DNA from: Candidatus Woesearchaeota archaeon | Lineage (GTDB): Archaea; Nanobdellota; Nanobdellia; Woesearchaeales; 0-14-0-80-44-23 | Direction of reading: 5' to 3' | Assembly: GCA_038874135.1 (NCBI GenBank) | Contig: JAVZCZ010000001.1 | Location: 751,219-815,218 of the forward strand | Length of the DNA: 64,000 bases | Part shown: positions 3,223 to 32,418 of the stretch, one piece after another | Position numbering within the stretch: the stretch's first letter is position 1 | How the letters are laid out: each line of letters opens with the position of its first letter | Position numbers and translations under genes: made by a program | Notes under the pieces: generated by a model | What the model saw: the letters and a program-made list of their open reading frames with translations, nothing else | Told to the model about the DNA's origin: nothing | Databases searched by the model: none

Positions 3223-5564
3223 TTTGTGCTCTGCTTTTAGGAATTGTAACTATAATCTTAGGTAGTTATGCCTGCGCTTTGGAATTTTCACCATCTTCAA
3301 TTAACGAAGTGCTTTCTATTAACAAGTTTGTTCAGAAAAACATAACTTTGAAGAATGAACTCTCCTATCCGGTAAGGATTGCTCTGGTGCCCTCTTCTAA
3401 CATTAGCGATTTATTAGACATCACTCCAAATTCTATTGAAATCGGGGCAAGAGAGTCAAAGAATGTTCTGGTTACAATATACGGAAATGTTGATCCTATA
3501 AAATTTATTAATCGCTCGTATTACATCTTTAATGGCTTCATAAAGCTTGAAGGAGCTAACGCTCAAATACCTACGGACTTGATGGTCACTAATGGAACAA
3601 TAAACCTGCCCAGCAGCATGGTGCTTTCAGCATCGGCAGGTAAGGATTATTTCACTAAATCAGAAAATCTCTCTTTTATAATTGTTGTAACGAATCTTAT
3701 GACAGGCTCAAAACCAAATGTTACTCTTTTCTATTATTTCCTAATTGATAAAAACTCAGAAATTCCCGTTGGGAACGATTCCTTCATAATTACTACTTCA
3801 AAATCAGTTGTAAAGGAATTCATACCAATGTCTTCAATACCTGATGGCACCTATACTTTCAGGGTTGTAATGTCTTATGCAGATAAGAAGAGTGTTGCTG
3901 ATGTGCCCTTCAGGATATCAACCCCATTTATATTCAGAACATTCTTAGGTATAGCTGTATGGCAGTATATACTCGGAGTGATTGCCTTAATAATAATTGG
4001 CTTGTTAGTATACTGGCGAAGGAAGCGTGTTTTGGCTTCTCGTCGTTATGGTGTGAGTGTGGATTTGCGTAGTTTTCCTTCTTCTGGTAGGCTTGTGCGT
4101 TTGGGTAAGTTGGCGGAGTATGGGCGTGATTTTTGGTTTGATTTGGATGGTTTGACTACGCATTGTATTGTGGCTGGTGCTACTGGTGGTGGTAAGACTG
4201 TTGCTGCTCAGGTTTTGGTGGAGGAGGCTTTGAAGGCTGGTGTGGCTGTGGTTGTTTTTGATCCTACGGCTCAGTGGAGTGGTTTTTTGAGGCCTTGTTC
4301 TGATAAGGGTATGTTGTCTTTGTATTCGGGTTTTGGGTTGCGTCGTTCTGATGCTCGGGGTTTTCCGGGTAATGTGAGGCAGGTGTTGGATGCTCGTGAG
4401 GTTTTTGATGTTAGGCGTTTTATGCGTCCTGGTGAGATTGAGATTTTGAGTTTGAATAGGTTGAGGCCTGAGGAGATTGATGTTTTTGTGGCTAATACTG
4501 TTAGGAGCGTGTTTGATGCGGGTTTGGATGAGTGTCGTGAGTTGAGGTTGTTGTTGGTTTATGATGAGGTGCATAGGTTGTTGCCGCGTTTTGGCGGTTC
4601 TGGTGAGGGTTTTGTGCAGATTGAGAGGGCTTGTCGTGAGTTTAGGAAGTGGGGTGTTGGTGTTGTTTTGATTAGTCAGGTTTTGTCTGATTTTGTTGGT
4701 GAGATTAAGGCTAATATTAATACTGAGGTTCAGATGAGGACTCGTGATGAGGGCGATTTGGAGCGTATTCGTGTTAAGTATGGTGATGCTTATCTTAGGG
4801 GTCTTGTGAGGGCTAGTGTGGGTACTGGTATGTTTGAGAATCCCGGTTATAATGGTGGTCGTCCTTTTTTTGTTAGTTTTAGGCCTTTGTTGCATAGTGT
4901 GGTTCGTTTGTCTGATGCCGAGTTGGGTGAGTATAATAGGTTGAATGGGGTGTTGGATGATTTGGAGTTTTGGATTGGCGAGTTGGAGCGTTTGGGTGTG
5001 GACGTGTTTGATTTGAGGTTGGAGTTGAAGTTGGCTTGGGATAAGTTGAGGGTTGGGGGGTTTGGGATGGTGGATGTTTATGTTGAGGGTTTGAGGCCTC
5101 GCGTGTTGGGCGAGTTTGAGCGTTTGGGGAGGCCTGTTCCTAAGCGTGAGGTTAAACGCCTTTCAGATGAGGAGCTTGCAAAGCAGAGGAAGCTGGCTGA
5201 GCAGAGCCGTGCAGAGTTTATAAAAAAGATGGGCATTAAAGAGCAGCAGTCCAAGCAGGAGGAAAAGAAGGAAGAACACATCGTGCAGCCTTACACTTTT
5301 GATAATGGTGCAATGGTTTCGGAGCTTAAGGAGTTGAAAGACGCTATAGAACCTATGAGTGCTGACATCCTCAGAAGCGCGTTGAGTGGAAACAATAAGC
5401 TTTCTGATTGGATAAAGAATGAGCTTAAGAATGAGCAGCTTGCCTCTGAAATTGAGAAGGCGAAGACGAAAAAGGAGATTCTTGATGCAATAACTGCTGA
5501 ACTTGATAAAGCAGAAAAGAGCAGTGAGAAATCTGGAACTGATAAAGGCCAAAAGTCTAAGTAG
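3183..5564 (+). CDS. Membrane-anchored HerA/FtsK-superfamily (DUF87-like) P-loop ATPase, paralog 1. Order: signal-anchor, ~250-aa extracellular domain, TM, cytoplasmic ATPase, Lys/Glu-rich tail with a conserved C-terminal module.
   Basis: Walker A AGATGGGKT is at nt 4173-4199 and Walker B LLLVYDEVH at 4548-4574. 'REFRKWGVGVVLISQ' is a HerA/DUF87-type motif. The TM GVIALIIIGLLVYW is followed by RRKR (positive-inside). The track start is GTG 3183, which overlaps the upstream ORF by 40 nt, so the exact start is uncertain. Confidence 0.8.
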   Translation: MQVKITRQGEKGIICALLLGIVTIILGSYACALEFSPSSINEVLSINKFVQKNITLKNELSYPVRIALVPSSNISDLLDITPNSIEIGARESKNVLVTIYGNVDPIKFINRSYYIFNGFIKLEGANAQIPTDLMVTNGTINLPSSMVLSASAGKDYFTKSENLSFIIVVTNLMTGSKPNVTLFYYFLIDKNSEIPVGNDSFIITTSKSVVKEFIPMSSIPDGTYTFRVVMSYADKKSVADVPFRISTPFIFRTFLGIAVWQYILGVIALIIIGLLVYWRRKRVLASRRYGVSVDLRSFPSSGRLVRLGKLAEYGRDFWFDLDGLTTHCIVAGATGGGKTVAAQVLVEEALKAGVAVVVFDPTAQWSGFLRPCSDKGMLSLYSGFGLRRSDARGFPGNVRQVLDAREVFDVRRFMRPGEIEILSLNRLRPEEIDVFVANTVRSVFDAGLDECRELRLLLVYDEVHRLLPRFGGSGEGFVQIERACREFRKWGVGVVLISQVLSDFVGEIKANINTEVQMRTRDEGDLERIRVKYGDAYLRGLVRASVGTGMFENPGYNGGRPFFVSFRPLLHSVVRLSDAELGEYNRLNGVLDDLEFWIGELERLGVDVFDLRLELKLAWDKLRVGGFGMVDVYVEGLRPRVLGEFERLGRPVPKREVKRLSDEELAKQRKLAEQSRAEFIKKMGIKEQQSKQEEKKEEHIVQPYTFDNGAMVSELKELKDAIEPMSADILRSALSGNNKLSDWIKNELKNEQLASEIEKAKTKKEILDAITAELDKAEKSSEKSGTDKGQKSK
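4021..5176 (+). repeat. ATPase cassette copy 1. This 1156-bp block is identical to 8201-9356, and its coding strand is G+T-rich.
   Basis: Base-by-base reading matches 8201-9356 at an offset of 4180. The sense translation and the long antisense ORF translations (4005..4895 vs 8191..9075) are identical in the ORF track. Line 4081-4140 contains 6 A and 6 C out of 60 nt. Flanking line 3901-3960 contains 17 A and 13 C. Confidence 0.95.
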
Positions 5565-5674
5565 ATTTCTTATACCTTAACCAACAATGTGGTATTTATA
5601 AACTTAGATTACTTAGTATGCATTTATACACATACACTATTTGTGTCACATTTAAAAATTAGTATATAAAATGA

Positions 5675-5688
5675 AAATATTTATATAT
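5675..5688 (+). promoter_or_regulatory. Putative BRE/TATA promoter element AAATATTTATATAT upstream of the RHH-led surface operon.
   Basis: It lies in an AT-rich 175-bp intergenic region with a TTTATATA core ~65 nt upstream of ATG 5753. The identical 14-mer recurs at 27328-27341 upstream of another secreted-protein gene. Confidence 0.4.
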
Positions 5689-5752
5689 CAATATACATAT
5701 TTAGTATGAGTTTGTATTCAAAGACCTTGAAAAGGCTTTTTTGGGACCCGAA

Positions 5753-5941
5753 ATGCGCAGTACGCCTGAGAAGCATGGCTCAAAGAGAATAACCATAACC
5801 ATAAGCAAGGACCTTTTAGACTTCTTAGATTTAGCTGTGGAGAACAGGCTGTTCGCAAGCAGAAGTCATGCACTTGAAGTCTTAGTAAGGCGCAGGATGG
5901 AGTTTGAGAATGAAGCAAAGAATTACAATTACATTGGATAG
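5753..5941 (+). CDS. Ribbon-helix-helix (CopG/Arc-MetJ-like) DNA-binding protein 1.
   Basis: 'KRITITISKDLLDFLDLAVENRLFASRSHALEVLV' has the beta-strand plus two-helix RHH pattern. The ORF track begins at TTG 5741, and the first ATG is 5753. Confidence 0.7.
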   Translation: MRSTPEKHGSKRITITISKDLLDFLDLAVENRLFASRSHALEVLVRRRMEFENEAKNYNYIG

Positions 5942-6101: not shown

Positions 6102-9100
6102 AAATCCTACCTTCAGGATACTGGAACGGGACAGGCAGCTGGAAAGGAGAAGACAGCAGCTGTACATCCTATTAGGCATCTTAGGAGTTTTACTAGCAGT
6201 TGGTGTTATACTTCTGATAAGAATGTTCATAGGATACGCAGTTCTGGAAAGCAGGGCTGGCACAATAACACAACTTAATATACAGCTCAGATACTCAACA
6301 CACATATGGGCTGGATTTTACGGATTGGCATTCCGCGTTCCCGGATACACTGAGCAGCAGTCTGCAGTTGCAGTCGGCGGCACAGTCTTCTTGCAGCACT
6401 TAGTATTTGACTGCTTAAAAACTACAGACGGCAACATTCCTGAGGTATATGCCAGTACTTCAAGAAACATTGACTGGAATTCACTCCAGCCAGCAACTCC
6501 AGACTTGATTGACAGCTACCTACAAGTAGATCCTTCAGATATAACCTCTGCTTCAAACACATTTACAGAAACAATGTCAATACTCTTAGGAGACAGAGAA
6601 ATCACAAATATTGCTGCAACGCACACCAAAAAGTTCGGAGTTCCGGACAGCACGGACTTTGATATAGGCTTCTTAAAAGATTCGTTGGGAAATCTCGTAT
6701 TTGTAACCCATGTAACTCCAACTTATACCAAAGGATTTAACAACCAAACTATAAACTACCAAATGCTCCTTCCAGTACAAGCAGGAACAGCTCCAGTATA
6801 CTACTTCTTCTCAGACCCATATGACGAGTGCCAAGCAGGGCTTGAAGCTCTCAAAAATGCTACCATATTCGGAAGAGCCATAGACAATGCAACAGGCCTT
6901 CCACTTGAAAATGTTACAGTTAATCTTCATACTGCTACAGTTCTTACCAACTCTACAGGAGACTATTACATAGCAATATTTAACGGCACCTACACCCTAG
7001 TAGCTTTCAAGCCGGGATATTACACCTTTGTTGCAACAAACATCACTCTCCCAGCTGACAATCTGTCTACACCTCAATCTGAAAATATTGTCGAATTTAA
7101 TATATCCCTCATTCCCAACCCTGGAAACCCAACTGGACTCGGAAACCTAACTGGCACTGTAACTGATAAAGACTTCGGAATACCCCTCTATAATGTAACA
7201 GTGTATGTAAACGGCAGAATCGCTAAGACAAACATTACAGGCCAATACCTACTTGAACTGCCAGCAGGAAATCATTCTCTTATAGCAATGAAGGAAAACT
7301 ACAGAACATACTACACTCCAAATGTAACTATACTGCCTGGAAACACCACTGAATTTAATTTCAGTATGGAATATGCAGAGCCAGAAATAAAAGAAACTCC
7401 TGGATATCCGCTAAATACCTTCGTTTCCAACCTACTCAAACAGGCAGTGCAGAGGCCTCAAATAATACTCACTCATAAGATTGATACAAAAGAGATATTT
7501 GAAACATTAAAAGTTGGCTCATATGTCCAGCGCTCATTCAATATAACGAGTTACAGGCCTGCCGAGTCCAAAGTTGAGTTTGAAGTCATAGGAAGTGCTG
7601 CACAGCTGGTAAAGGTTGACAAGAGCAGCTCAATAATACCTCCAAGGGGTGCAGAAAACTTCACCCTTACAATTCTAGCCAATGTGCCTCCAGGCATATA
7701 TACCGGAACATTCCTAATCAAAGGAGACCTTGAAGACAGAATCCCGATAAAGATAGTTGTTTATGAGAAGGATAGACTTCCAATAGAGGCTCTTCTCCTA
7801 GAAGTAGTGCCAATAAAAAAGATAATCAGCCCAGGAGAACTATTTGAATATAAGGTCAGCATGACAAACCTGCTGAGGGACACCCCATACAACATCACCC
7901 TTTCATACAATATCACCTCGCGCTCTTCAAATCTTACTATTCCCGTTGAAGAAGAGACGAGACTCTTGGAAACTCAGCTTTCCTACCTTAAGTATTACAA
8001 GCTTCCCAAAGACCTGCCAGAAGGAGAATACTTCCTTGAAACTAGAGCGGAATTCTTAGAACTATCAACAAACACAAAATCGCTATTCATAGTTAAGAAG
8101 CCAATTTACATGTATGCATTATTCGGAATACTTCCCCTCTGGCAGCTTTTCATAATAATAGTTTTCACCTCCCTCATGACCTTCGCAGGATTAATGTATC
8201 GGAAGCGTGTTTTGGCTTCTCGTCGTTATGGTGTGAGTGTGGATTTGCGTAGTTTTCCTTCTTCTGGTAGGCTTGTGCGTTTGGGTAAGTTGGCGGAGTA
8301 TGGGCGTGATTTTTGGTTTGATTTGGATGGTTTGACTACGCATTGTATTGTGGCTGGTGCTACTGGTGGTGGTAAGACTGTTGCTGCTCAGGTTTTGGTG
8401 GAGGAGGCTTTGAAGGCTGGTGTGGCTGTGGTTGTTTTTGATCCTACGGCTCAGTGGAGTGGTTTTTTGAGGCCTTGTTCTGATAAGGGTATGTTGTCTT
8501 TGTATTCGGGTTTTGGGTTGCGTCGTTCTGATGCTCGGGGTTTTCCGGGTAATGTGAGGCAGGTGTTGGATGCTCGTGAGGTTTTTGATGTTAGGCGTTT
8601 TATGCGTCCTGGTGAGATTGAGATTTTGAGTTTGAATAGGTTGAGGCCTGAGGAGATTGATGTTTTTGTGGCTAATACTGTTAGGAGCGTGTTTGATGCG
8701 GGTTTGGATGAGTGTCGTGAGTTGAGGTTGTTGTTGGTTTATGATGAGGTGCATAGGTTGTTGCCGCGTTTTGGCGGTTCTGGTGAGGGTTTTGTGCAGA
8801 TTGAGAGGGCTTGTCGTGAGTTTAGGAAGTGGGGTGTTGGTGTTGTTTTGATTAGTCAGGTTTTGTCTGATTTTGTTGGTGAGATTAAGGCTAATATTAA
8901 TACTGAGGTTCAGATGAGGACTCGTGATGAGGGCGATTTGGAGCGTATTCGTGTTAAGTATGGTGATGCTTATCTTAGGGGTCTTGTGAGGGCTAGTGTG
9001 GGTACTGGTATGTTTGAGAATCCCGGTTATAATGGTGGTCGTCCTTTTTTTGTTAGTTTTAGGCCTTTGTTGCATAGTGTGGTTCGTTTGTCTGATGCCG

Positions 9101-9636
9101 AGTTGGGTGAGTATAATAGGTTGAATGGGGTGTTGGATGATTTGGAGTTTTGGATTGGCGAGTTGGAGCGTTTGGGTGTGGACGTGTTTGATTTGAGGTT
9201 GGAGTTGAAGTTGGCTTGGGATAAGTTGAGGGTTGGGGGGTTTGGGATGGTGGATGTTTATGTTGAGGGTTTGAGGCCTCGCGTGTTGGGCGAGTTTGAG
9301 CGTTTGGGGAGGCCTGTTCCTAAGCGTGAGGTTAAACGCCTTTCAGATGAGGAGCTGCAGAAGGAAAAGGAGATTGCTATGCAGGAACATGAGAAAGCAA
9401 AACAGCAGGAAGCAGGACAAACTTCACAAAATTCAGATTCCAAGACAGAAACTTCCCAAATTCAAAACACAAAAGTTGAAGAGCAGCCCAGCCAAAATGA
9501 AAAGGCCGAGAACCAAGAGAATGCAAAATCCTCAAATGAAAATAAAATTAAAAGAGTAAGGGAGGGTAAAAAGCAGAGGATGAGGAAATCAGCAAGTTCG
9601 GAAAAAAATAATAAAAAAAGAGGTGCTAAAAAATGA
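6094..9636 (+). CDS. Membrane-anchored HerA/FtsK-superfamily ATPase, paralog 2. Order: N-terminal TM, ~650-aa extracellular region with CarboxypepD_reg-like and Ig-like modules, TM, the identical ATPase domain, acidic/basic low-complexity tail.
   Basis: N-terminal TM is LYILLGILGVLLAVGVILLI. 'GRAIDNATGLPLENVTVNL...GYYTF' and 'GTVTDKDFGIPLYNVTVYVNG...ENYRTY' are carboxypeptidase-regulatory-like. The second TM is LWQLFIIIVFTSLMTFAGLMY followed by RKR. The ATPase domain is identical to the one in 3183..5564. Confidence 0.8.
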   Translation: MNKNPTFRILERDRQLERRRQQLYILLGILGVLLAVGVILLIRMFIGYAVLESRAGTITQLNIQLRYSTHIWAGFYGLAFRVPGYTEQQSAVAVGGTVFLQHLVFDCLKTTDGNIPEVYASTSRNIDWNSLQPATPDLIDSYLQVDPSDITSASNTFTETMSILLGDREITNIAATHTKKFGVPDSTDFDIGFLKDSLGNLVFVTHVTPTYTKGFNNQTINYQMLLPVQAGTAPVYYFFSDPYDECQAGLEALKNATIFGRAIDNATGLPLENVTVNLHTATVLTNSTGDYYIAIFNGTYTLVAFKPGYYTFVATNITLPADNLSTPQSENIVEFNISLIPNPGNPTGLGNLTGTVTDKDFGIPLYNVTVYVNGRIAKTNITGQYLLELPAGNHSLIAMKENYRTYYTPNVTILPGNTTEFNFSMEYAEPEIKETPGYPLNTFVSNLLKQAVQRPQIILTHKIDTKEIFETLKVGSYVQRSFNITSYRPAESKVEFEVIGSAAQLVKVDKSSSIIPPRGAENFTLTILANVPPGIYTGTFLIKGDLEDRIPIKIVVYEKDRLPIEALLLEVVPIKKIISPGELFEYKVSMTNLLRDTPYNITLSYNITSRSSNLTIPVEEETRLLETQLSYLKYYKLPKDLPEGEYFLETRAEFLELSTNTKSLFIVKKPIYMYALFGILPLWQLFIIIVFTSLMTFAGLMYRKRVLASRRYGVSVDLRSFPSSGRLVRLGKLAEYGRDFWFDLDGLTTHCIVAGATGGGKTVAAQVLVEEALKAGVAVVVFDPTAQWSGFLRPCSDKGMLSLYSGFGLRRSDARGFPGNVRQVLDAREVFDVRRFMRPGEIEILSLNRLRPEEIDVFVANTVRSVFDAGLDECRELRLLLVYDEVHRLLPRFGGSGEGFVQIERACREFRKWGVGVVLISQVLSDFVGEIKANINTEVQMRTRDEGDLERIRVKYGDAYLRGLVRASVGTGMFENPGYNGGRPFFVSFRPLLHSVVRLSDAELGEYNRLNGVLDDLEFWIGELERLGVDVFDLRLELKLAWDKLRVGGFGMVDVYVEGLRPRVLGEFERLGRPVPKREVKRLSDEELQKEKEIAMQEHEKAKQQEAGQTSQNSDSKTETSQIQNTKVEEQPSQNEKAENQENAKSSNENKIKRVREGKKQRMRKSASSEKNNKKRGAKK
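8201..9356 (+). repeat. ATPase cassette copy 2, identical to 4021-5176.
   Basis: Evidence is the same as for copy 1. It is in the same codon phase in its host ORF. Identity ends at ...gatgaggagct, followed by g at 9357 versus t at 5177. Confidence 0.95.
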
Positions 9637-10457
9637 AGTCAAAAAAATCAGTTAAGTATAGAGCGAGAGTTCACAATAAGGCTAACTCAAGCAAGAAAGA
9701 TTTGAGAAAAAAGAAGGTTCGCATTGAGAGAAAAAATAGCACTAAAACAATTAGTAAAGAAACATCACCTAAAAAATCCAAAGCTTACTTAAAAAAGCGA
9801 TTTGGCAAGATTGATAACAGAGTTATTAAAAATAAAAATAATAAAGTAAAACCAGGAGCTTTAAAGCACAGAAAAAAAGAGAAGAAGCAGAATGTTCAAA
9901 AAAGAAGAAAAGCAATGCAAAAAAAGCCAGCGCCTGAAAACGCAGCCGCAGCAACCAACCAAGTACAGACAAATACGACTTCAACAGCTCAGCAGGCAAA
10001 TTCTCAAATTGAAACACATTCAGATGTGGAAGCGCTTCAAAAAGAATACTCAGATATCAACAGCTATCTGGTTCAGCGAAGAAAAGCGGGAGTTGACACC
10101 TTCATACAGGAACTGAAACTTTTTTCAATACCGTCAAAAATTCAGCTTTTAAAGGCAGAATACTCAAAAGATTATGCTGACAAGATTAGAGTTCAACTTA
10201 ATGAGATTAGAGAAGAGTTAGAAAAAGCAGAACCTCAACCGACCCCCCTTGACCTTCCTAAAGTTCAGCCGAACCAGCCGAATCCATTCTCAGAGCAACA
10301 GCTCACAAGTCAGAATAATAATCATCCCTTAACGCAGGATGCAGAAAACTATTCAAAAGAACTAGCTGAGAAGCGCCTTTCAAATAAAATAAAAAATTCT
10401 CTGAGAAATGCTTCCAAAAAAGTTATGTCCATATTCAAAAAAGGAGGTGGAAATTAG
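9633..10457 (+). CDS. Highly basic Lys-rich protein of unknown function.
   Basis: Long ORF with an ATGA overlap onto the upstream stop and GAGGTG 7 nt upstream of the ATG. The K/R-rich N-terminal half has no recognisable motif. Confidence 0.55.
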   Translation: MKSKKSVKYRARVHNKANSSKKDLRKKKVRIERKNSTKTISKETSPKKSKAYLKKRFGKIDNRVIKNKNNKVKPGALKHRKKEKKQNVQKRRKAMQKKPAPENAAAATNQVQTNTTSTAQQANSQIETHSDVEALQKEYSDINSYLVQRRKAGVDTFIQELKLFSIPSKIQLLKAEYSKDYADKIRVQLNEIREELEKAEPQPTPLDLPKVQPNQPNPFSEQQLTSQNNNHPLTQDAENYSKELAEKRLSNKIKNSLRNASKKVMSIFKKGGGN

Positions 10458-18652: not shown

Positions 18653-21600
18653 AACGCAGCATAACTTTTGGAATAATTTTTCTACTTTTAATAGCATTAT
18701 CTCTAAAAATTTCCAGTGCGAGCTGTCCGGAAATAATACTTTCATCCAACACCACTATAAAAGATGTAGATATAAAAATAAAAGTTTCAGGGCAGACACA
18801 AGAGTCAGAATTAGTGATAAGAACGCCTTCAGGTCCGTATCGTCTTTTAGGAGATATTCCTTCCCTTACAAGCTTTACTCCAAAAGATGTAGGTAACTAC
18901 TCTGTTGAAGTTTGGCAGGACAAAGTGCTGTGTGACATAAAAAATTTTACCGCACTACCTCACAATAACTCGACACTATTCCTTCCGCCAATACTTTCCA
19001 CAGATAAAAAAGAATACCACTTAGGTGAAGCTGTTAGAATTTCACTCTCACCAGAATATTACGGTTACTCAATTGAAGGTTTAAATTTAAAACTGTTGAC
19101 AGGACAGCAATCCTACTCTCTCTTAGGGGAAATATCTGAGGATATAGAATTCCGACCTGTTTTTGAGGGTAACTATACAATTCTCTTATTAGACTCCATT
19201 GGAAATACTCTTGCTTCTGAAAGCTTTTCCGTCTACGCTTTGAATAGTTACTTTGTTAATAACTTATCTATTAAAAAACGATTTTCGGACAAATTTGAAT
19301 ACAACATCAGCACTAATTCAGAAGACATGATTGTTGAATTCTCAAACTCCTTCATTAAAAGACTAAACCTAAAGAAACTATCTTCAAGTAATCTGGCGAT
19401 AGTTAGGATTTCAGAGTTACTGCCGGAAGAGAGGAGCCGTCTGAATATTCCTACAATTGGAGGTGAAATTAAAGAATCTTTTGAATTAGATCCTTCCGCC
19501 CTAAACTTTTCAGAAGGTGAACTAACAATTGTCCCTTCAGGAAATGAGCTGTGGAAGTGCACTGATTGGAATTATGATGCTCAGTATTGTGTCGGAAGTT
19601 GGATCAAGCAGCAGAATCTTGTTCCCGGTGTTGAAAATGTAATTAAGTTTAACCTTTCCGATCCAGGATATGCTATTGTTGCAACTGCTAACATAACTTC
19701 AATAGCAGCAGCAACCCTCTCTGAAAACTCTTTTGTAGTAGCATATTGCGATGATACAAATGATAGAACTGCTTTCAAGGTTTTCTGGGCTAATGGGAGT
19801 GTAAGAACTAATGAGGTGATAGTTGATTCAACTACTGGAAATTGTGGTTACACCTCAGTTTCTGTTTCAGCACTTACCAACAACTCTTTTGTTATCGGAT
19901 GGATTGATACTGCCAGCAGTTATGCCAGCTTCGCTGTTTATGATGCCTCTGGAAATGTTATTACTCCAAGGGTGGATGTGGATACTACTGCTGGTACTTC
20001 CCGTTCTGTGAGTGTGTCTGCTTTTAATAGTTCTGCTTTTGTTTTTGGTTGGTATGATCAGGCTTCTGCTTATGCTTCTTTTAGGACTTTTAGTTCTTCT
20101 GGTGTGGCTATTTCTTCTGTTGTTAATGTGGATACTACTGCTGGTACTTGTAATGCTGTTTCTGTTTCTGCGGTTAATTCTTCTGCTTTTGTTTTTGGCT
20201 GGTATGATCAGGCTTCTTCTGATATGACTTTTCGTACTTATACTTCTTCTGGCGTTGCGATTTCTGCCGTGACTGATGTGAATACTAAGGTGGGTACTGG
20301 TTCTTTTTCTGTTTCTGTTGCTGCTTATAATTCTAGTGCTTTTGTTATTGTTTGGTATGATCAGAGGCTGGGTTATGTTAGTTTTCGTCAGTATTCTGTT
20401 GCTGGTGTTCAGATTGGGAGTCAGGTTAATCCGGATACTGCTGTTGGGACTACTGCTTCTGGTGTTTTTGTTTCTTCTGTTGGTGTGAATTCTAGTGTTT
20501 TTGCTGTGGGTTGGAATGATTTGACTACTGATGTTGTTAGTTCTGTGAGGACTTATAGTGGTGCTGGTGCTGCTGTTTCTTCTGAGGTGGTTGTGCAGGC
20601 TAATGCTTTGAAGTATAATGCTCTTGCCGGCTACTACCCTGCTACAGGCATAGGTTTCTGCAATGGAAACTTTGTAGCAATAATTGTTAATACTTCTTCG
20701 CAGGCATTTTTTAAAGCATACATGCCTAATGGAAGCGAATGGGACGGAAACTGTCCTGATGTTATACCGCCTCAAGTTGTTCTGAATAGTCCTCAGCAAG
20801 CCGCTGTCTTCTATAGTGATACTGTGGATTTTAATTTTACAGTAACCGACAATGTAGATTTAGTAATTCCAAACTGTACCCTTTGGATAAACACTTCATC
20901 AACATTCTCTCCAAACATAACAATTTACAATATAACCTCTAATAAGATGAACAACATAACTCTATCTCAAATTCCAGACAACAAATACATTTGGAATGTC
21001 AGGTGTTATGACAATGCAGGCAACTCAGCATTTGCTTCTTCAAATTTTTCATTATTTATCAACAAGAATCCACCTCAAATCTTGAACCCCCTCCTGAATG
21101 AAAGTACAGTAAATCAGAGCCATTCAGTAAAGTTTAATGTCTCAATAACCGATTCATATGGTATAGACTCTGCATATATAACTATGATGTACCCAAACGG
21201 TTCATCAAATAATTATTATCTTAATAGAAGTGGGAATGAATTTTACTTCATAATTAATAATACAATCCAGATAGGAACATATTCTGTGATATATGTGTGG
21301 GCTAATGATACCCTCGGACAAAACTCTTCTCTAACCCTTTCAGATCTCCAGTTTAATGTCACGCCTTCACCACCTGCTCAATTCAACCTTTTAAGTCCCC
21401 CGAATGCAACAGAGTCAACAAACCTGCGACCAAACTTGACTTGGGAGACATCTTACGATGAGACATTCCTTAATTATACTATTCAGATTTCTCAGGATGA
21501 AAACTTCGCAACAGTACTCTTTACATATTATAATCCGGGTGTTTATAATACTTCAAGAGTGCTGGATTATGCCCTAGAAGCGAATAAGAAATATTACTGG

Positions 21601-24600
21601 CAAGTTATTGCATACGACACCTTTGGCAATTATAAATATTCAACAAATTACTTCTCATACATAACTGACACTTTGGCACCTTCCATCGTGCTAAATATGC
21701 CGGGAAATCTTTCATTCATAAATTCTACACAAGTCAACTTTACATTTACACCTTCAGATGCTAACACGATATCAAGATGTACTCTCTACCTAAATGTCAC
21801 AGGAGCATTCCTCCCTAACACAAGTATAACTCAAGTTGTTAAAGACACTCCAAATTTAATACAAGCTGAAATTAAAGATGAGGGCGCCCACTTGTGGAAT
21901 ATCCTGTGTAATGATAGCGCAGGAAATTCTGCGTTTGCTCCTCAGAACTTCACCTTTATTTCAGATCTTAACCCGCCCTCAATACAACTATTAAGTCCTC
22001 CCAACGGCAGTACATACAACATTTCCAATTTTGTAAATTTCACTATAAATGCATCTGATAGGATATCCGCAGTATACCGCTGCACACTCATAATAAATGG
22101 ACAGCCCGTTCTTACTTCTTATTCTGTGCAGGACGGAGTGCCATACACATTTCAGTATTTCTTGCTGAATGGAAATTACTCCTGGCAGGCAGAATGTTAC
22201 GACTTAAACGGTCATTCAAACCTTTCTTATTCCTACAACATTTCAGTTTTAGTTATTGATTCAGTACCTCCAATCGTAACCTTAACTAGCCCCGCACAGG
22301 ACCAATACCTTTCCAGTAAAACAGTACTATTCAATTATACTCCGCAAGACGCTACTGGAATAAAGAACTGCACCCTATTTATTGATGGCAATGAAAACGA
22401 AACTGACTTTTCTGTTAGGAACTTGGAACCAAACTACTTCTTATTAGAATACTTAGAGGACGGGGTTCATAACTGGACTGTGCTCTGCTTTGACAATAGC
22501 AGCCAGCAGAACAGCTACGCACCCACCCCTGTAAGGTTCTCAATAGATACAACTCCGCCATCAGTAATTCTTATCTCTCCAGAAGATGGAGTTCTTACTA
22601 ATAATTCTCTAGTCACCTTTGTATACGCACCATCAGATGCAAATCTTGAAAATTGCTCCCTCTACACTAATTCTTCTAGCGAGTGGATGATGGAATCAAC
22701 AGACTTCTACCCAATTAATAATCAGCAGAATGTTTTTCAAAAATCAGTTGCGGATGGAGTTCTCGTTTGGAATGTTGTTTGTTATGATAAGGGCGGGCTC
22801 TCCAGCTTTGCTGACTTTAACCGAACATTGAATGTTGATACAACTCCGCCGCGATACGCCAATATAACTCTGATCCCGACAAGCCCAACTGAATATTCAC
22901 CTTATGGGGAGTATTACTTTAATATAACATGGATTGATGATTTTAATTTGTCATCTGTATATTTTGAGAGCAACTTTTCAGGAACCTTTGAGAATGAGAG
23001 TCCCAACCACTTTGAAAACATTTACTATGTTCACAAGACAGGTCTTAACTCAGGAACATACCAGATTAGGTGGTACGCTACTGATTCGGCAAAAAATCAG
23101 AACGAAACCCCGGCAATTCAGTATGATATAACTAAAGCAGAGCCTAACCTTACTTTAAAAATAAACAATTATTCTTATAATTTGACTGTTGAGGAAGATA
23201 GCATAGTTAATATCTCAGCAGAGCTCTTAGAGCCACCCGGAGCATACCTCTCTATTTATATTAACAATAATCTCATTACTAACGGAACTTCTCCTATTTA
23301 TACTACTTACAACTTTACAGAGCCTGGATCTTATAATGTTACTGCGAGCTTTGAAGGAAGCCAAAACTACCTTTCAGCATTCAGAACAATAATTGTAAAT
23401 GTCTCAGACACTACACCCCCAATTATAGTTCCCATCTTCCCGCAGAATAACTCATTCATAGGGGAAAATCACATTGTATTTTCTTACAATGTAACTGACA
23501 GCAGCCAAATTGCCAACTGTTCTTTATTCATAAATAGAACATTAAACCAGAGCAATACCAGCATACAGAATGGAATAAACTACTTTGAAGTTGACTTTCA
23601 AGATGGCAACTACTCCTGGCACCTCTCCTGTTATGACGAGTTTTCAAACTATGCTGAAAGCCCGGAGATATACTTCACTTCAATAAGGTCAGATAAAATA
23701 ATTGCTTCAGCACATCCTCAACAGCCGCAGTACCAAAAGGGTGAAACGGCAATACTTATAGGAAATACTACGAGCATCTTCGGAACACCATTAGATACAA
23801 ATATTTATGCTAATGTAATAAGAGGCAATACTACGATAGAATGGTGGAACACTTCATTCAAATACAGAAGGCCTATATTTATAAATAACTCAATGAACGC
23901 TTCAACATACTTGCAGGCGCTAATCAACATTTCAAACCTTAGCGCTTCAATTTCTAACTGTTCTGAACTCAGAATTGTAATGAACAACTCTTTTGAGCAC
24001 ACCCTAATCCCCTCAGAAGTACTCTTAGAAGAGGGAAATGCTTCGTGCCTGCTAAGATTTAATGCGAATGCTTCTGCACTCGCCACGAATGAGAACAACT
24101 ACTATGTATATTACGGAAACTCAGGAGCAGGAGCCCAGCAGCAGCTTCCAGAACTTGCAGGCATATCAGTACAGCGTAAGTCTGTTGTGGGAACTACAAC
24201 TTCAATCACTGATACGATGAGTGAGGTGAATACTTCAAGAGCGTTCCTGCTTTTCAGCGCCAATGTCGCCAGCTCAACTCCTGCAGTTTGGGAAATAACG
24301 GGAAGAATATTATCCTCAACGCAGGTAGTGTTTGAAAGATACTCGGGAACCACATCTGCAAATATATCCTGGCAGGTTATAGAAGGCTCAGAGATTAATG
24401 TGCAGAGGGGAACCGCATCATTTGGAGCTACACAATCAAATACTACAATACTTATAGATAGTGTTAATCTAAACGAGTCTTTCATAATAATAACCGGAAG
24501 GACCAGCAGCACCACAGCAGGGAATGCAAACATGGGCTTCTTTAGGGCAATGTTCCTTAACTCTACTGCAATTTATATTGAAAGGGCTACAACTGGAAGC

Positions 24601-26487
24601 ACTGCTGTTGCAGAATGGCAGGTAGTTTCGTGGAGTGGTGCGAGAGTGCAGAGTGGAAACATCTCTTTCATAACAGCTTCGCAGAGCGTCCCCATAGAAG
24701 AGGTTAATCTTTCCAGGAGCATGCTGATATTCAGCACTGCTGTAACTGGCAACACCAGGATAGGAGCTAACATGATTTTTGGCAACTTTACCAATTCCAC
24801 AACAGCATACTTCTCAAGAACGAATGCTGCAGGAACAGCATATGTTTCCTGGTTTGCAGTTGAGCTTCCCCAATACTACTCAGTACAAGCCGGAACAGTT
24901 TCAATCACAGCAGATACCAATGTTCAAATATACCCCGTGCGCACTGAGAAGACATTTCATCTGCACTCAGCTTCAGCAGTAGGAGCAACCAGCACTACCT
25001 ACTCTGATGCCCTAATAAGAGCCGAGCTAACAAATAGCTCAAATCTTATGCTGGATAAGGTGTCTGGCACAAATACCAACTATGTTGCCTGGTTTGTAGT
25101 AGAAGAAAAATATCTTTCAGCTAATTCGGGAATGGAAGAAGCTTTAATGGCATACAACTACAACTCCACATTGACAGGGCTTTACACTCTAAGTTGGGTT
25201 TCCGGAAAGAGCCCGGTGGGCAACTACACCTTTGTATACTCTGCAACAAAAACTAATTACTCATCTGCAAGGGCATACTCCACATTTGAGATAATTCCAG
25301 ACACAACTCCGCCCAATGTTACGCTTGTAAGCCCACTTCAACTTGAAAAGAGGGGCGTCGGAAATATAATCTTTTCCTACATACCTTATGACTTGAACCT
25401 TCTAAACTGCACACTCTACCTTGGAAAGGACGGAACTTTTTCTCCGAACATTACGAGCACGAGTCCAATAAATAATGCAGTAAACAATCTTTCAGTATAC
25501 TTAGACATCGGATTATACACTTGGAATGTGCTTTGTAGGGACAGTGAAGGAAACTCTGCATTTGCTCTGCAGAACAGGACACTTAACATAACAGGCCCAG
25601 ACCTATACCCTGTTGCTGTTTGGTTTAGCAACACGCCCAGGATTGAGACCGTTAACACAACCATCTTTGTTAACATTTCTAATAAGGGGCTTTCTGATTG
25701 TACTAAAAACTTCACTGTTGAGTTCAGGAGAAGTGGGCTGCTCATAGGCAATCTGAGTGTGCAGGGGCTGCTGATTGGCGAAGTTAAAAGCTTGAACTCT
25801 TCATTCCTGTTAGGTCCCGGCATTAATAATTTAAGTATTAGCATAGATCCTGATAACAGGATTAACGAGTCGGACGAGTCAAACAACAATGCTTATGAGG
25901 TTATTGCTGTTGAGTTTTATCAGTACTATTACGGAAATCTTAGCTTTTTACAGGTTTTGAGCAAGTCCTCAAACGAGTCTGTATTCACTTGGGAAAATTC
26001 AAATCCTGAAGATGGGGTTATTTTAGTTGCTGATATTGATTCAAAATTTGAGATTGGAAACTTAAGAGCCCTGACTCGGAATGCAAATGGGGATCCAGTT
26101 ATAAATGATCTTTCAGAATTGGATGAGGCTTTTAATTCTTCAAATCTTAACGATTCTATTAAGAATGTGTGGGGAAACGGCACTGACATTCCAATAATGA
26201 CTGCCAACTTTACGATAGGACAGTTTAATATTTCTAACGTTCCGGTAGCATATTCCAGAAATTCCACTTCTTCAATTACGGGAATACTCTGGGACTCTGC
26301 AGATGATTTAAGCCACAACCTTCAGTATGACAGCTCTGATAGGGAAGATATAGTTCTAATCACAAAGATTCACCCGTTAGCAGACTGTTCTTTTGGTAGC
26401 TGCAATTATGAGATAAGAATTCCAGCAGCTCTACGCTCTTACAAGCCTAACACCGACCTCGTAGTTTTTTACACCATGCTAAACTGA
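18649..26487 (+). CDS. Giant (2612 aa) secreted/surface protein, a paralog of the 2346-aa gene. It has a propeller-like repeat region, Ig-like modules, a DUF2341-like region, four ~85-aa repeats and CARDB.
   Basis: ATGA overlap start. The N-terminal ~330 aa and C-terminal ~350 aa are homologous to the 2346-aa protein (e.g. ELWKCTDWNYDAQYC vs ELWKCREYDFSTRSC). Repeats of ~45-51 aa with F-V-x-G-W-x-D run over ~19670-20720. 'WWNTSFKYRRPIFINN...NNYYVYYGN' at ~23840-24125 is DUF2341-like. A CARDB-like stretch lies at ~25600-25900. Confidence 0.85.
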   Translation: MKRSITFGIIFLLLIALSLKISSASCPEIILSSNTTIKDVDIKIKVSGQTQESELVIRTPSGPYRLLGDIPSLTSFTPKDVGNYSVEVWQDKVLCDIKNFTALPHNNSTLFLPPILSTDKKEYHLGEAVRISLSPEYYGYSIEGLNLKLLTGQQSYSLLGEISEDIEFRPVFEGNYTILLLDSIGNTLASESFSVYALNSYFVNNLSIKKRFSDKFEYNISTNSEDMIVEFSNSFIKRLNLKKLSSSNLAIVRISELLPEERSRLNIPTIGGEIKESFELDPSALNFSEGELTIVPSGNELWKCTDWNYDAQYCVGSWIKQQNLVPGVENVIKFNLSDPGYAIVATANITSIAAATLSENSFVVAYCDDTNDRTAFKVFWANGSVRTNEVIVDSTTGNCGYTSVSVSALTNNSFVIGWIDTASSYASFAVYDASGNVITPRVDVDTTAGTSRSVSVSAFNSSAFVFGWYDQASAYASFRTFSSSGVAISSVVNVDTTAGTCNAVSVSAVNSSAFVFGWYDQASSDMTFRTYTSSGVAISAVTDVNTKVGTGSFSVSVAAYNSSAFVIVWYDQRLGYVSFRQYSVAGVQIGSQVNPDTAVGTTASGVFVSSVGVNSSVFAVGWNDLTTDVVSSVRTYSGAGAAVSSEVVVQANALKYNALAGYYPATGIGFCNGNFVAIIVNTSSQAFFKAYMPNGSEWDGNCPDVIPPQVVLNSPQQAAVFYSDTVDFNFTVTDNVDLVIPNCTLWINTSSTFSPNITIYNITSNKMNNITLSQIPDNKYIWNVRCYDNAGNSAFASSNFSLFINKNPPQILNPLLNESTVNQSHSVKFNVSITDSYGIDSAYITMMYPNGSSNNYYLNRSGNEFYFIINNTIQIGTYSVIYVWANDTLGQNSSLTLSDLQFNVTPSPPAQFNLLSPPNATESTNLRPNLTWETSYDETFLNYTIQISQDENFATVLFTYYNPGVYNTSRVLDYALEANKKYYWQVIAYDTFGNYKYSTNYFSYITDTLAPSIVLNMPGNLSFINSTQVNFTFTPSDANTISRCTLYLNVTGAFLPNTSITQVVKDTPNLIQAEIKDEGAHLWNILCNDSAGNSAFAPQNFTFISDLNPPSIQLLSPPNGSTYNISNFVNFTINASDRISAVYRCTLIINGQPVLTSYSVQDGVPYTFQYFLLNGNYSWQAECYDLNGHSNLSYSYNISVLVIDSVPPIVTLTSPAQDQYLSSKTVLFNYTPQDATGIKNCTLFIDGNENETDFSVRNLEPNYFLLEYLEDGVHNWTVLCFDNSSQQNSYAPTPVRFSIDTTPPSVILISPEDGVLTNNSLVTFVYAPSDANLENCSLYTNSSSEWMMESTDFYPINNQQNVFQKSVADGVLVWNVVCYDKGGLSSFADFNRTLNVDTTPPRYANITLIPTSPTEYSPYGEYYFNITWIDDFNLSSVYFESNFSGTFENESPNHFENIYYVHKTGLNSGTYQIRWYATDSAKNQNETPAIQYDITKAEPNLTLKINNYSYNLTVEEDSIVNISAELLEPPGAYLSIYINNNLITNGTSPIYTTYNFTEPGSYNVTASFEGSQNYLSAFRTIIVNVSDTTPPIIVPIFPQNNSFIGENHIVFSYNVTDSSQIANCSLFINRTLNQSNTSIQNGINYFEVDFQDGNYSWHLSCYDEFSNYAESPEIYFTSIRSDKIIASAHPQQPQYQKGETAILIGNTTSIFGTPLDTNIYANVIRGNTTIEWWNTSFKYRRPIFINNSMNASTYLQALINISNLSASISNCSELRIVMNNSFEHTLIPSEVLLEEGNASCLLRFNANASALATNENNYYVYYGNSGAGAQQQLPELAGISVQRKSVVGTTTSITDTMSEVNTSRAFLLFSANVASSTPAVWEITGRILSSTQVVFERYSGTTSANISWQVIEGSEINVQRGTASFGATQSNTTILIDSVNLNESFIIITGRTSSTTAGNANMGFFRAMFLNSTAIYIERATTGSTAVAEWQVVSWSGARVQSGNISFITASQSVPIEEVNLSRSMLIFSTAVTGNTRIGANMIFGNFTNSTTAYFSRTNAAGTAYVSWFAVELPQYYSVQAGTVSITADTNVQIYPVRTEKTFHLHSASAVGATSTTYSDALIRAELTNSSNLMLDKVSGTNTNYVAWFVVEEKYLSANSGMEEALMAYNYNSTLTGLYTLSWVSGKSPVGNYTFVYSATKTNYSSARAYSTFEIIPDTTPPNVTLVSPLQLEKRGVGNIIFSYIPYDLNLLNCTLYLGKDGTFSPNITSTSPINNAVNNLSVYLDIGLYTWNVLCRDSEGNSAFALQNRTLNITGPDLYPVAVWFSNTPRIETVNTTIFVNISNKGLSDCTKNFTVEFRRSGLLIGNLSVQGLLIGEVKSLNSSFLLGPGINNLSISIDPDNRINESDESNNNAYEVIAVEFYQYYYGNLSFLQVLSKSSNESVFTWENSNPEDGVILVADIDSKFEIGNLRALTRNANGDPVINDLSELDEAFNSSNLNDSIKNVWGNGTDIPIMTANFTIGQFNISNVPVAYSRNSTSSITGILWDSADDLSHNLQYDSSDREDIVLITKIHPLADCSFGSCNYEIRIPAALRSYKPNTDLVVFYTMLN
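19969..20624 (+). repeat. Propeller-blade cassette copy 1. This 656-bp block is identical to 30550-31205, and its coding strand is G+T-rich.
   Basis: Base-by-base reading matches at an offset of 10581. Three reading frames translate identically in the ORF track: the sense frame, antisense 19867..20799 vs 30460..31284, and +frame 20012..20227 vs 30593..30808. Line 20041-20100 contains 7 A and 9 C out of 60 nt. Confidence 0.95.
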
Positions 26488-27413: not shown

Positions 27414-27453
27414 AGCTTATTTACAAGCTTAAAGCAAGCAAGAGGGTGTCAAC

Positions 27454-28224: not shown

Positions 28225-28294
28225 GGGAAAGCCATACTTGCTTTCTCTTATTAATTTTCACCTCCAGGCGAGGCGAGCAAGCGAGTGATGAAAA

Positions 28295-29187: not shown

Positions 29188-29194
29188 GCCAGAG

Positions 29195-30112: not shown

Positions 30113-30159
30113 ACTTTTTTTATAAAACTTTTTAAATATATTCTCATTTTAAATGGCTA

Positions 30160-32418
30160 ATGTTGAAATATAATCAGAGGTTTATTTTATATGCATCATT
30201 TCTAATTTTAATAGCAGCACTTTCCAGTATGGCAGCTGCTGCTCCAATAACATTTTCTACACACTTCTTAGCTCCTATAGCAGTCGCTTCTCTGTCTAGA
30301 GACTCATTCGTAATCGCGTATTGTGACAATACCTCCGCCAAGGTCGCCTTTCAAATTTATAGAACTAATGGCACCCAGCTCCTTGCAGAGCGGGATGTGG
30401 ACACAACACTTGGAACAAACCCTTGCGGTTACACTTCAGTTGCAGTTTCAGCTTTTAATTCAACACACTTTGTTATCGGCTGGATAGACAGCGGAAGCTC
30501 TTATGCAAGCTTTCAAGTGTTTGATATAAATGGGAATCCATATTCCAGCAGGGTGGATGTGGATACTACTGCTGGTACTTCCCGTTCTGTGAGTGTGTCT
30601 GCTTTTAATAGTTCTGCTTTTGTTTTTGGTTGGTATGATCAGGCTTCTGCTTATGCTTCTTTTAGGACTTTTAGTTCTTCTGGTGTGGCTATTTCTTCTG
30701 TTGTTAATGTGGATACTACTGCTGGTACTTGTAATGCTGTTTCTGTTTCTGCGGTTAATTCTTCTGCTTTTGTTTTTGGCTGGTATGATCAGGCTTCTTC
30801 TGATATGACTTTTCGTACTTATACTTCTTCTGGCGTTGCGATTTCTGCCGTGACTGATGTGAATACTAAGGTGGGTACTGGTTCTTTTTCTGTTTCTGTT
30901 GCTGCTTATAATTCTAGTGCTTTTGTTATTGTTTGGTATGATCAGAGGCTGGGTTATGTTAGTTTTCGTCAGTATTCTGTTGCTGGTGTTCAGATTGGGA
31001 GTCAGGTTAATCCGGATACTGCTGTTGGGACTACTGCTTCTGGTGTTTTTGTTTCTTCTGTTGGTGTGAATTCTAGTGTTTTTGCTGTGGGTTGGAATGA
31101 TTTGACTACTGATGTTGTTAGTTCTGTGAGGACTTATAGTGGTGCTGGTGCTGCTGTTTCTTCTGAGGTGGTTGTGCAGGCTAATGCTTTGAAGTATAAT
31201 GCTCTGGCTGGCTACTACCCTGCCACGGGCATACGCATGTGTGACAACGCATTCGTAATAGCAATTTCTAATACAAGCACGCAAGCATTCTTCACAGGAT
31301 ATTATGCCAATGGAACCAACTGGAATGGAATATGCACGCCTCCGAATATGAACTCATCTAAAATAACCTCTTCAGAAGATAACTTTTACTACAATGCAAC
31401 CCTGATTGGATGGTGCAATGCAACCCATCCTGACAGCCAAAACATCTCATACTACTACAACTGGTACCTAAACGGGCTATTAAACAAAAGTGGACAAACA
31501 CAGTATAGCACTCCAGGAGTCGCAGTGAATGTGGATAACATAACCTCATCATACCTCTCAATAGGCCAAAACTGGACTTTGGAATGCATTGCCTATGACG
31601 GATTATCCAACTCAACACCTCTCAACTCGACAGCAGTGACAATAGTGGATATAAATAGGCCTCCCCTGATAACCTCAATTCTTTTGGACGATGACATCCT
31701 TGCTCCTTCTTTTCAGATAGATTTATCTGCGGGCTCAACTAAAAGGGTTAATTGTAATGGCACAATTCAGGATCCAGATGGAATCTCAGACATTGTGAGC
31801 ATATCAGCAGTACTTTACGCTTCTGGCAACGGCACTCTTCCTACATTTCCCGAAGACAATAACACATTATACCGAAACTACAGCTGCTCACTATCCCAAA
31901 TAAACCTGACCTCTGGCTCTTTTAACTGCTCATTCGCATTGTGGTATTATGCCCAAAACGGCACCTGGACATGCAATGTTACTATTAATGACACAAAGTC
32001 CCACTACGCTTCAGCAATAATAAATTCAACTGTTAACGAGCTGGTGGCATTTGAAGTTTTCCCACTAACAGTTGACTATGGCAATATGGCTCCTGGAAGC
32101 ACCAGCGCGTCTTCAACAAATCTGCTAATAACCAATATGGGCAATACAAAAATTGACTTAATACTTAATGGCACCAACATGAGCTGCACCTTAGGATTTG
32201 TAGGAGCTTCAAACCAGCATTATAATTTGACAGGGTTTGACCAGGAATATTCTAATATGAGAGCACTTACCGAGCTTCCGTTTACCGCTTCAGATTTTGA
32301 CCTTCAAAAGCGTGTAACCTCGGAAGCTAACAGGACTGCCTATTGGCGCGTTCAAATCCCTACAGGCGTTAAGGGAAGATGTCTAGGTATAATTCAGCTG
32401 ACAGCTCAGAAGGGTTAA
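30160..32418 (+). CDS. Secreted mosaic protein. The N-terminal propeller-like repeats are shared with the 2612-aa giant, and the C-terminal half is a family B domain.
   Basis: The signal is FILYASFLILIAALSSMAAA. Residues flanking the identical cassette are homologous to the giant but diverged. The C-terminal half is homologous to 29195..30112. Confidence 0.8.
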   Translation: MLKYNQRFILYASFLILIAALSSMAAAAPITFSTHFLAPIAVASLSRDSFVIAYCDNTSAKVAFQIYRTNGTQLLAERDVDTTLGTNPCGYTSVAVSAFNSTHFVIGWIDSGSSYASFQVFDINGNPYSSRVDVDTTAGTSRSVSVSAFNSSAFVFGWYDQASAYASFRTFSSSGVAISSVVNVDTTAGTCNAVSVSAVNSSAFVFGWYDQASSDMTFRTYTSSGVAISAVTDVNTKVGTGSFSVSVAAYNSSAFVIVWYDQRLGYVSFRQYSVAGVQIGSQVNPDTAVGTTASGVFVSSVGVNSSVFAVGWNDLTTDVVSSVRTYSGAGAAVSSEVVVQANALKYNALAGYYPATGIRMCDNAFVIAISNTSTQAFFTGYYANGTNWNGICTPPNMNSSKITSSEDNFYYNATLIGWCNATHPDSQNISYYYNWYLNGLLNKSGQTQYSTPGVAVNVDNITSSYLSIGQNWTLECIAYDGLSNSTPLNSTAVTIVDINRPPLITSILLDDDILAPSFQIDLSAGSTKRVNCNGTIQDPDGISDIVSISAVLYASGNGTLPTFPEDNNTLYRNYSCSLSQINLTSGSFNCSFALWYYAQNGTWTCNVTINDTKSHYASAIINSTVNELVAFEVFPLTVDYGNMAPGSTSASSTNLLITNMGNTKIDLILNGTNMSCTLGFVGASNQHYNLTGFDQEYSNMRALTELPFTASDFDLQKRVTSEANRTAYWRVQIPTGVKGRCLGIIQLTAQKG
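30550..31205 (+). repeat. Propeller-blade cassette copy 2, identical to 19969-20624.
   Basis: Evidence is the same as for copy 1, and the codon phase is the same. After 31205 the two loci stay ~85% identical for about 27 nt, then diverge. Confidence 0.95.

Follow-up and report, generated by a model that had tools for sequence, protein, structure and literature searches.

Concerted evolution can keep paralogous genes within a genome nearly identical, as described for the duplicated mtrA genes of methanogens (PMC4632066) and in a survey (PMC6053082); such cases combine near-identity within genomes with divergence between species, discrete tract edges and orthologous flanks, and no compositional signature has been reported for them. 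Here we analyse a stretch of 64,000 nucleotides (nt), called the window throughout, from a Candidatus Woesearchaeota metagenome-assembled genome (GCA_038874135.1, contig JAVZCZ010000001.1, positions 751,219 to 815,218), in which two unrelated domains, a predicted P-loop ATPase domain and a predicted beta-propeller, each occur as two identical copies whose sense strand has lost nearly all A and C at synonymous sites. The blocks are genuine and are inherited within one clade of Woesearchaeota, tiny archaea of the DPANN group. The defining features that were tested place them within concerted evolution by gene conversion, but they differ from the described cases in an extreme purge of A and C from one strand and in an almost deterministic codon set. 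Full-text literature searches found no published description of such blocks.

Several other described processes resemble the blocks in part. GC-biased gene conversion shares a transmission bias that is confined to conversion tracts, acts with selection-like strength, overrides codon preference and shifts amino-acid content. Here, however, the division is between keto (G, T) and amino (A, C) bases and is strand-specific: instead of a symmetric shift towards G+C, the sense strand is rich in G+T and the antisense strand in A+C, and the G+C (GC) content of the blocks is only 0.42-0.47. Single-strand deamination, as in the asymmetry of the mitochondrial heavy strand or in replication and transcription skews, also leaves one strand G+T-rich and the other A+C-rich, but these skews are genome- or replichore-wide, graded and far weaker, whereas the blocks are 0.65-1.2 kilobases (kb) long, sharp, saturated and not transition-only; neither a dominance of C to T plus A to G changes nor a loss of C at least as full as that of A was found. 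Diversity-generating retroelements are common in DPANN archaea. They too copy directionally between two repeats in a surface-protein locus and make base-specific changes, but they diversify, with template and variable repeats of ~100-150 nt that differ at adenines beside a reverse transcriptase (RT) gene, whereas the blocks are identical over 0.65-1.2 kb and are affected at both A and C. The copies show no adenine differences over 1156 nt and 656 nt, and no RT lies near the repeats; Pfam profile scans, which covered the open reading frames (ORFs) of 150 amino acids (aa) or longer between 1 and 36 kb and 20 of the 31 ORFs that reach 110 aa between 36 and 64 kb, found no RT, deaminase or recombinase encoded in the window. 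Repeat-induced point mutation, in which C to T and G to A transitions cause duplicated copies to diverge and decay, fits no better, for the copies are identical, their frames are intact, the Walker motifs are conserved and A is purged too. The only documented archaeal activity that we found to divide G and T from A and C as the two strands of the blocks do is that of EndoMS/NucS (PMC4838380), which is known for correcting replication errors and restraining homeologous recombination; it has not been described as shaping composition or as driving biased conversion.

Two recoded repeat pairs in one locus

The long exact direct repeats in the window belong to two families (Table 1), an ATPase tract of 1156 nt whose copies are spaced 4.2 kb apart and a propeller tract of 656 nt whose copies are spaced 10.6 kb apart, and there is no third copy that might serve as a template. 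This confirms the exact two-copy identity of two unrelated domains claimed by the original prediction, which had been made from the letters alone, although "100% identical" should be read as ~99% or more, as one node of a short-read graph assembly may stand for both copies. The two-copy state itself is secure, with four distinct flank junctions.

A composition scan of the whole 64 kb (150-nt sliding window, threshold G+T >0.72) selected solely 3986-5180, 8173-9360, 19970-20630 and 30551-31213, which are the four repeat blocks, all in frame within plus-strand genes. Skews over positions 4001-5000 are +0.57 (GC) and -0.45 (AT). The near-total loss of A and C at synonymous sites is borne out by the codons: 369 of 378 in the ATPase block end in G or T and none in A, against a G/T-ending fraction of 0.55 in the flanks of the same gene (binomial p = 6e-82), and in the propeller block the count is 213/217. 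Every long identical repeat in the window is recoded and nothing else is, which supports the proposal that one process links homogenisation and recoding; this exclusiveness describes a limited sample, ~68 kb from the source genome and 9-22 kb from each relative.

The edges are precise and polar, as had been proposed. At the 5' edge of the ATPase tract the composition switches at 4020 and identity begins at 4021, whereas at the 3' edge the run of G/T-ending codons stops at 5153 and identity continues to 5176, 23 nt into sequence of normal composition; an identical 3' end of this kind, 20-25 nt long, is present in both the window and the related locus L003. In the propeller pair, identity stops at 20624 and 31205 and is followed by ~29 nt of normal composition that are ~85% identical. 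The ATPase block starts directly after a transmembrane helix and the propeller block at a blade boundary.

Both domain assignments hold. The two ATPases score 37.8 and 37.1 bits against PF01935 (DUF87, cut-off 23.2) and 37.4 and 27.2 bits against PF05872 (HerA_C, cut-off 22), and the GxxGxGK and DE motifs (Walker A and Walker B) are invariant across the ATPase alignment; by its DUF87/HerA central domain, the pair is predicted to belong to the HerA/FtsK superfamily of P-loop ATPases. Against NCBIfam, the ATPases gave weak, sub-threshold matches to CedD and TraD. The AlphaFold2 model of the propeller (predicted local distance difference test score 83.6, predicted template modelling score 0.81) has seven four-stranded blades, and Foldseek matched it with probability 1.00 to the propellers of prolyl-oligopeptidases, lectins and sialidases. 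The circular arrangement of four-stranded blades in this model points to a seven-bladed beta-propeller.

Antisense ORFs of 274-421 aa overlie the blocks (Table 1; similar ones at 8191-9075, 19867-20799 and 30460-31284). We rejected them as real genes and regard them as low-complexity by-products: the aligned antisense frame contains 0 stops because the reverse complement of G/T-ending codons yields no stop in that frame. All nine C-ending codons of the window ATPase block lie at 4506-5111, the 3' 57% of the block (codon index at least 162 of 378; approximately p = 0.007 for random placement). In the sister contig L086 the G/T-ending fraction is 1.00 in every 20-codon window of the block except the last, and for this reason most of the C-ending codons in the window block are probably recent changes that spread to both copies. 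No comparable gradient of C-ending codons is seen in the propeller block. Two giant surface proteins of the locus (11612-18652, 2346 aa, and 18649-26487, 2612 aa) contain Big_7, Big_13 and CARDB domains, and the ~190-aa repeat modules of both share 60-72% DNA identity at normal composition; diverged repeats at the same locus are thus not purged.

Recurrence and the recoding rule in related genomes

In independent assemblies (NCBI, ENA and JGI), the ATPase block is found again in four to five related species, each time at matching columns of the alignment and with its start directly after the transmembrane helix. The first species is represented by the window and its sister L086 (NCBI and JGI; block 90.8% identical; locus GC content 0.40), the second by L001, L088 and L089 (ENA and JGI; 0.45), the third by L003 and L091 (two NCBI assemblies; 0.33-0.35) and the fourth by L004 (NCBI; 0.29). 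No such block was found in 76 other loci of Woese-, Pace- and Nanoarchaeota with ~40-45% protein identity.

Comparison of the two paralogs, a and b, across these genomes shows that the segments evolve in concert by ongoing gene conversion between direct repeats. Wherever both paralogs are visible (window, L001 and L003), their blocks are 99.6-100% identical within the genome, while blocks of different species are only 80-86% identical and the N-terminal parts group by paralog type rather than by genome. Thus the N-terminal part of window paralog b is 67% identical in amino acids to that of L001 paralog b, whereas in the upstream flank window paralog a shares 23% with L001 paralog b and 20% with window paralog b. 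The coupling of homogenisation with recoding recurs in the related species and is absent where the paralogs have diverged: in L006, L018, L023, L035 and L078 the paralogous ATPase domains are 70-83% identical and no domain-limited purged block is present.

The propeller block is strictly purged in the third species. In the second, the ortholog L083 is partly purged, with a G/T-ending fraction of 0.64 compared with 0.35 outside. The third-species contig L084 (1-385) stops inside a purged propeller block, consistent with an unresolved repeat and a second copy.

Block divergence tracks flank divergence and the G:T ratio of the blocks tracks host GC content. No viral contig carries the recoded 20-mer; five metagenome contigs match it, three of them clade members and two by chance. 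The chance matches, L087 (in a 699-aa ORF) and L090, lie in unrelated ORFs and were rejected as further instances.

A fused ATPase gene, with the N-terminus of a, one purged block and the C-terminus of b, is present in L004 (5905-8466) and in L091 (10001-12529), the latter otherwise 99.99% identical to the two-copy assembly L003. The fusion represents either a deletion by direct-repeat recombination or a collapsed assembly loop, and is possibly a direct sign of repeat recombination. We dropped these two loci as a single-copy test of the need for two copies, as they are deletions or loop collapses rather than ancient single copies.

Two further loci bear on the range of the pattern. In L085, from a related Woesearchaeota genome (GCA_026394965.1), a Cys-rich tandem-repeat module with units 85-89% identical has patches (783-1020, 1143-1380 and 1863-1980) in which 80-95% of codons end in G or T, compared with 0.41-0.51 in neighbouring genes; here the same process may be at work, in weaker or decaying form, on a third protein family. 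In L035, from another Woesearchaeota genome, both ATPase paralogs (1797-5387 and 5417-7852; domains 83% identical) have a gene-wide G/T-ending fraction of ~0.75 and only 2-3% third-position C. This skew extends over the full genes instead of one domain and resembles a codon bias of the whole genome or strand, unlike the blocks.

The original prediction had taken the recoding for saturating A to G plus C to T change on the sense strand. The rule is instead to use the fewest sense-strand A and C, with T preferred. In the AT-rich genomes, amino acids are each written with essentially a single codon (GGT, GCT, GTT, TTG, ATT, CCT, ACT, TAT, AAT, GAT, GAG, AAG and CAG) and only Ser (TCT/AGT) and Arg (AGG/CGT) keep two, in both cases ties for the fewest A+C. 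Third positions other than G or T number 0/402 in L004 and 1/407 in L003. Between these two, the block contains no third-position synonymous difference (0/339) beside 14 amino-acid changes, whereas upstream of the block, in the flank of this gene, synonymous codons agree at the third position in 53% of cases, which is saturated. In the window and L001 (GC 0.40-0.45), free third positions mix T and G, and the synonymous differences between the two species are nearly all exchanges of G and T.

Several observations show that transitions alone are insufficient. The observed T/(T+G) ratio at four-fold sites is 0.78, 0.78, 0.98 and 0.99, where pure transitions starting from the flank composition would give 0.58, 0.55, 0.49 and 0.46 (p 3e-7 to 1e-55), although multiple hits at sites could blur this transition-only comparison. 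CGT makes up 44-49% of Arg codons in the blocks compared with 3% in other window genes and 0% in the flanks of L003 and L004, and the change from AGR to CGT needs A to C and G to T; Tyr to Phe likewise needs A to T. Relative to the nearest weakly recoded ortholog, L083, 68 synonymous changes include 34 C>T, 13 A>T and only 3 A>G. The residual exceptions in the window blocks are 13 NNC and 0 NNA codons, though A is a commoner third base than C in the flanks.

The purge extends beyond synonymous sites. A+C at codon positions 1 and 2 is 0.34 in the block, whereas six non-recoded homologs have 0.52; the share of Lys drops from 9.1% to 2.5% and that of Ile from 7.8% to 2.2% (each ~3.5-fold), and Arg and Val become twice as frequent. 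Among the replacements, K>R (11), I>V (5) and Y>F (4) are typical, with the catalytic motifs invariant. The loss of A and C from the sense strand goes as far as the protein can bear, conservative replacements included. Two functional explanations were rejected. Translational selection would not explain the shift in amino-acid content, and ribosomal protein L10e, the translation initiation factor IF-2 (aIF5B) homolog and other window genes lack such usage. An unstructured mRNA as the purpose is contradicted by predicted folding, in which the sense RNA reaches -32 kcal/mol per 150 nt, compared with ~-26 in the flanks, and the A/C-rich antisense strand -8.

Candidate mechanisms

The reading that we favour, though only tentatively, is biased conversion that renews the antisense strand again and again, by replacement or new synthesis, with EndoMS/NucS filtering the resulting mismatches. 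This enzyme binds and cuts G/T, G/G and T/T mismatches, acts moderately on T/C and weakly on A/G, and ignores A/C, A/A and C/C (PMC4838380). NucS also suppresses homeologous recombination (PMC8228993), and in Mycobacterium smegmatis it acts on mismatches arising from single-strand oligonucleotide recombination (PMC11551744). In each conversion or repair event, the antisense strand would be replaced or re-synthesised on its sense-strand partner, so that every difference would become a mismatch between a sense base and the incoming antisense base. An antisense A or C opposite a sense A or C would go uncut and the change would survive, whereas changes in the opposite direction would be cut and undone. 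On balance the sense strand would exchange A and C for G and T, T being preferred to G and C to A, and the process would behave as a strong strand-polar biased gene conversion requiring no selection on individual synonymous sites; the choice between G and T at free sites would be set further by the AT pressure of each genome. The identical 3' end of normal composition in the ATPase tract may be a pairing or priming anchor.

The order expected on the sense strand, T > G >> C > A, is the order found (the four-fold T excess, the change from AGR to CGT, and 13 NNC against 0 NNA), but this base hierarchy was recognised only after the data had been seen, which is the first of several points that weigh against NucS-filtered conversion. 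The model presumes that the clade genomes carry a nucS gene, so far putative: the Pfam scans found none in the 64-kb window, and a literature search gave nothing on this enzyme in DPANN archaea. Which way the bias runs depends on a cut intermediate being restored and not converted, which the model assumes. Preference for C over A predicts drift to CGT and TCT, yet AGG and CGT for Arg, and AGT and TCT for Ser, are about equally used; and the NNC codons of the window are present in both copies, so disfavoured alleles can spread too. The propeller ortholog of the second species is only partly purged, its partner copy was not seen, and no ortholog of the 2612-aa protein was retrieved from that species. 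Finally, if NucS is widespread, the restriction to one clade is unexplained.

More generally, for a force of this strength per site, a bias in transmission or mutation is more plausible than selection on ~400 individual synonymous sites in a symbiont with small populations. It is conceivable, but we consider it rather doubtful, that the blocks reveal an unrecognised force, either a strand-polar, mismatch-type-selective gene conversion or a dedicated strand-rewriting system, that imposes a near-deterministic, A/C-minimal code of one codon per amino acid, reshapes the protein and has been kept over deep DPANN divergence.

Strand-specific damage is an unlikely source of the pattern. Under this explanation the sense strand is often single-stranded, as a G-rich R-loop, a recombination tail or a D-loop, and suffers deamination of C to U and of A to hypoxanthine as well as oxidation of G (G to T), while R-loop or break-induced recombination homogenises the copies. 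Immunoglobulin switch regions and the mitochondrial heavy strand would be comparable cases. A G+T-rich strand with a switch-like GC skew of ~+0.57, as found at 4001-5000, is what an R-loop-prone non-template strand would show, and C>T is the largest class of change relative to L083 (34/68 synonymous changes). Some isolate names suggest hot springs (e.g. Kamchatka; the habitat is taken from names only), and deamination is fast at high temperature. Adenine deamination is, however, far slower than cytosine deamination, and here A is purged at least as completely as C (13 NNC, 0 NNA). Damage predicts neither the A to C change from AGR to CGT nor the A to T change from Tyr to Phe, and A>T outnumbers A>G by 13 to 3 relative to L083. 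Nor would exposure along a whole transcript readily yield edges that are sharp to about one codon and sit at the same protein position in all species.

Selection for a G/T-rich sense strand, we think, is quite unlikely. It might act through a pairing preference of RecA/Rad51-family proteins that keeps the copies recombining, or through a function at the mRNA or DNA level. RecA does prefer TGG and GT-rich DNA (PMC3763553), composition and homogenisation co-occur in the blocks, and the nearly structure-free antisense strand (-8 kcal/mol per 150 nt) would favour filament formation. Yet 402 optimal codons of 402 demand strong selection at each site, which would be implausible in small symbiont populations. 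About one third of positions 1 and 2 are still A or C, so no function that requires an A/C-free strand is possible, the sense mRNA does have structure (-32 kcal/mol per 150 nt, with -26 in the flanks), and an Rfam scan matched no family inside the blocks, only four tRNAs elsewhere in the window.

We give little credence to a dedicated copying system encoded elsewhere in the genome, such as an RT or error-prone polymerase, with or without a deaminase, that works through a single-stranded or RNA intermediate as a homogenising counterpart of a diversity-generating retroelement. The polar edges, the shared 3' end of ~20-25 nt in the window and L003, which recalls a priming or anchor site, and the like treatment of two unrelated domains of one locus would fit such a system. 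The original prediction had proposed a targeted deamination-like or error-prone copying process, and the window neither supports nor excludes it: the Pfam scans of its ORFs found no RT, deaminase or recombinase, there is no template copy, the copies are identical rather than different at A positions, and the T excess is no deaminase signature. Cassettes from a foreign replicon that were later duplicated, or an assembly chimera, both also raised at the outset, would explain the sharp composition switch but are hardly credible, given a block that is vertically inherited at the same position in four to five species, seen in independent NCBI, ENA and JGI assemblies, diverging in parallel with its flanks, following host GC in its G:T ratio and matched by no viral contig and, among the five metagenome contigs, only by three clade members and two chance hits.

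If NucS-filtered conversion is correct, the blocks would be the first case, as far as we found, in which mismatch-repair specificity and recombination strand polarity together rewrite genes without codon selection, with an almost fixed codon table and an altered amino-acid make-up as the outcome. They would offer a natural experiment on the ceiling of transmission-bias strength and a genomic marker of conversion tracts and of the transferred strand in uncultured archaea. Whatever the mechanism, a pattern with 0/402 exceptions that is kept across genomes of 29% to 45% GC needs a new explanation. The blocks resemble NNK-type synthetic recoding and polymerase-deaminase targeted mutagenesis, and they caution genome analysis that extreme local composition need not imply foreign DNA.

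Gene context of the blocks

Table 1. Genes, purged blocks and identity tracts in the window (positions count from its first nucleotide).
Feature	Position	Strand	Basis or remark
Predicted membrane HerA/FtsK-type ATPase, short paralog a, 793 aa	3183..5564	+	Pfam DUF87 and HerA_C above cut-offs; hundreds of Woesearchaeota homologs
A/C-purged block, ATPase copy 1, 378 codons	4020..5153	+	369 G/T-ending, none A-ending
Identity tract, ATPase copy 1, 1156 nt	4021..5176	+	Exact repeat
Antisense ORF, by-product	4005..4895	-	Low-complexity product rich in T, L, I, Q and N
Predicted membrane HerA/FtsK-type ATPase, long paralog b, 1180 aa	6094..9636	+	N-terminal CarboxypepD_reg domains
A/C-purged block, ATPase copy 2	8194..9333	+	Composition
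Identity tract, ATPase copy 2, 1156 nt	8201..9356	+	Exact repeat
Giant surface protein, 2612 aa, Big_7 and CARDB, predicted N-terminal propeller	18649..26487	+	Domain and repeat analysis
Purged block and identity tract, propeller copy 1, 656 nt, ~4.4 blades of 50 aa	19969..20624	+	
752-aa protein, predicted N-terminal seven-bladed beta-propeller	30160..32418	+	AlphaFold2 model, Foldseek matches; homologs found
Purged block and identity tract, propeller copy 2, 656 nt	30550..31205	+	

The window is a chromosomal locus and also encodes topoisomerase I, ribosomal protein L10e, the IF-2 (aIF5B) homolog, KsgA and four tRNAs. The tRNA genes lie at 51848-52245 and 57323-57394, and the one at 52139-52245 spans 107 nt, so an intron is probable.

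Synteny is conserved in the clade. Upstream of the ATPases, L001, L002, L003 and L085 have an amino-acid permease on the opposite strand, a small RHH_1 protein and a PKD-domain surface protein; ATPase a, ATPase b, two small proteins and giant immunoglobulin-like proteins follow. This conserved cluster looks like one with a cell-surface or translocation role. The gene after ATPase b in the window (9633-10457) encodes a Lys-rich low-complexity protein and is A-rich; the sole stretch of the window with G+T <0.28, at 9827-9979, is ordinary low complexity and not a mirror-image block.

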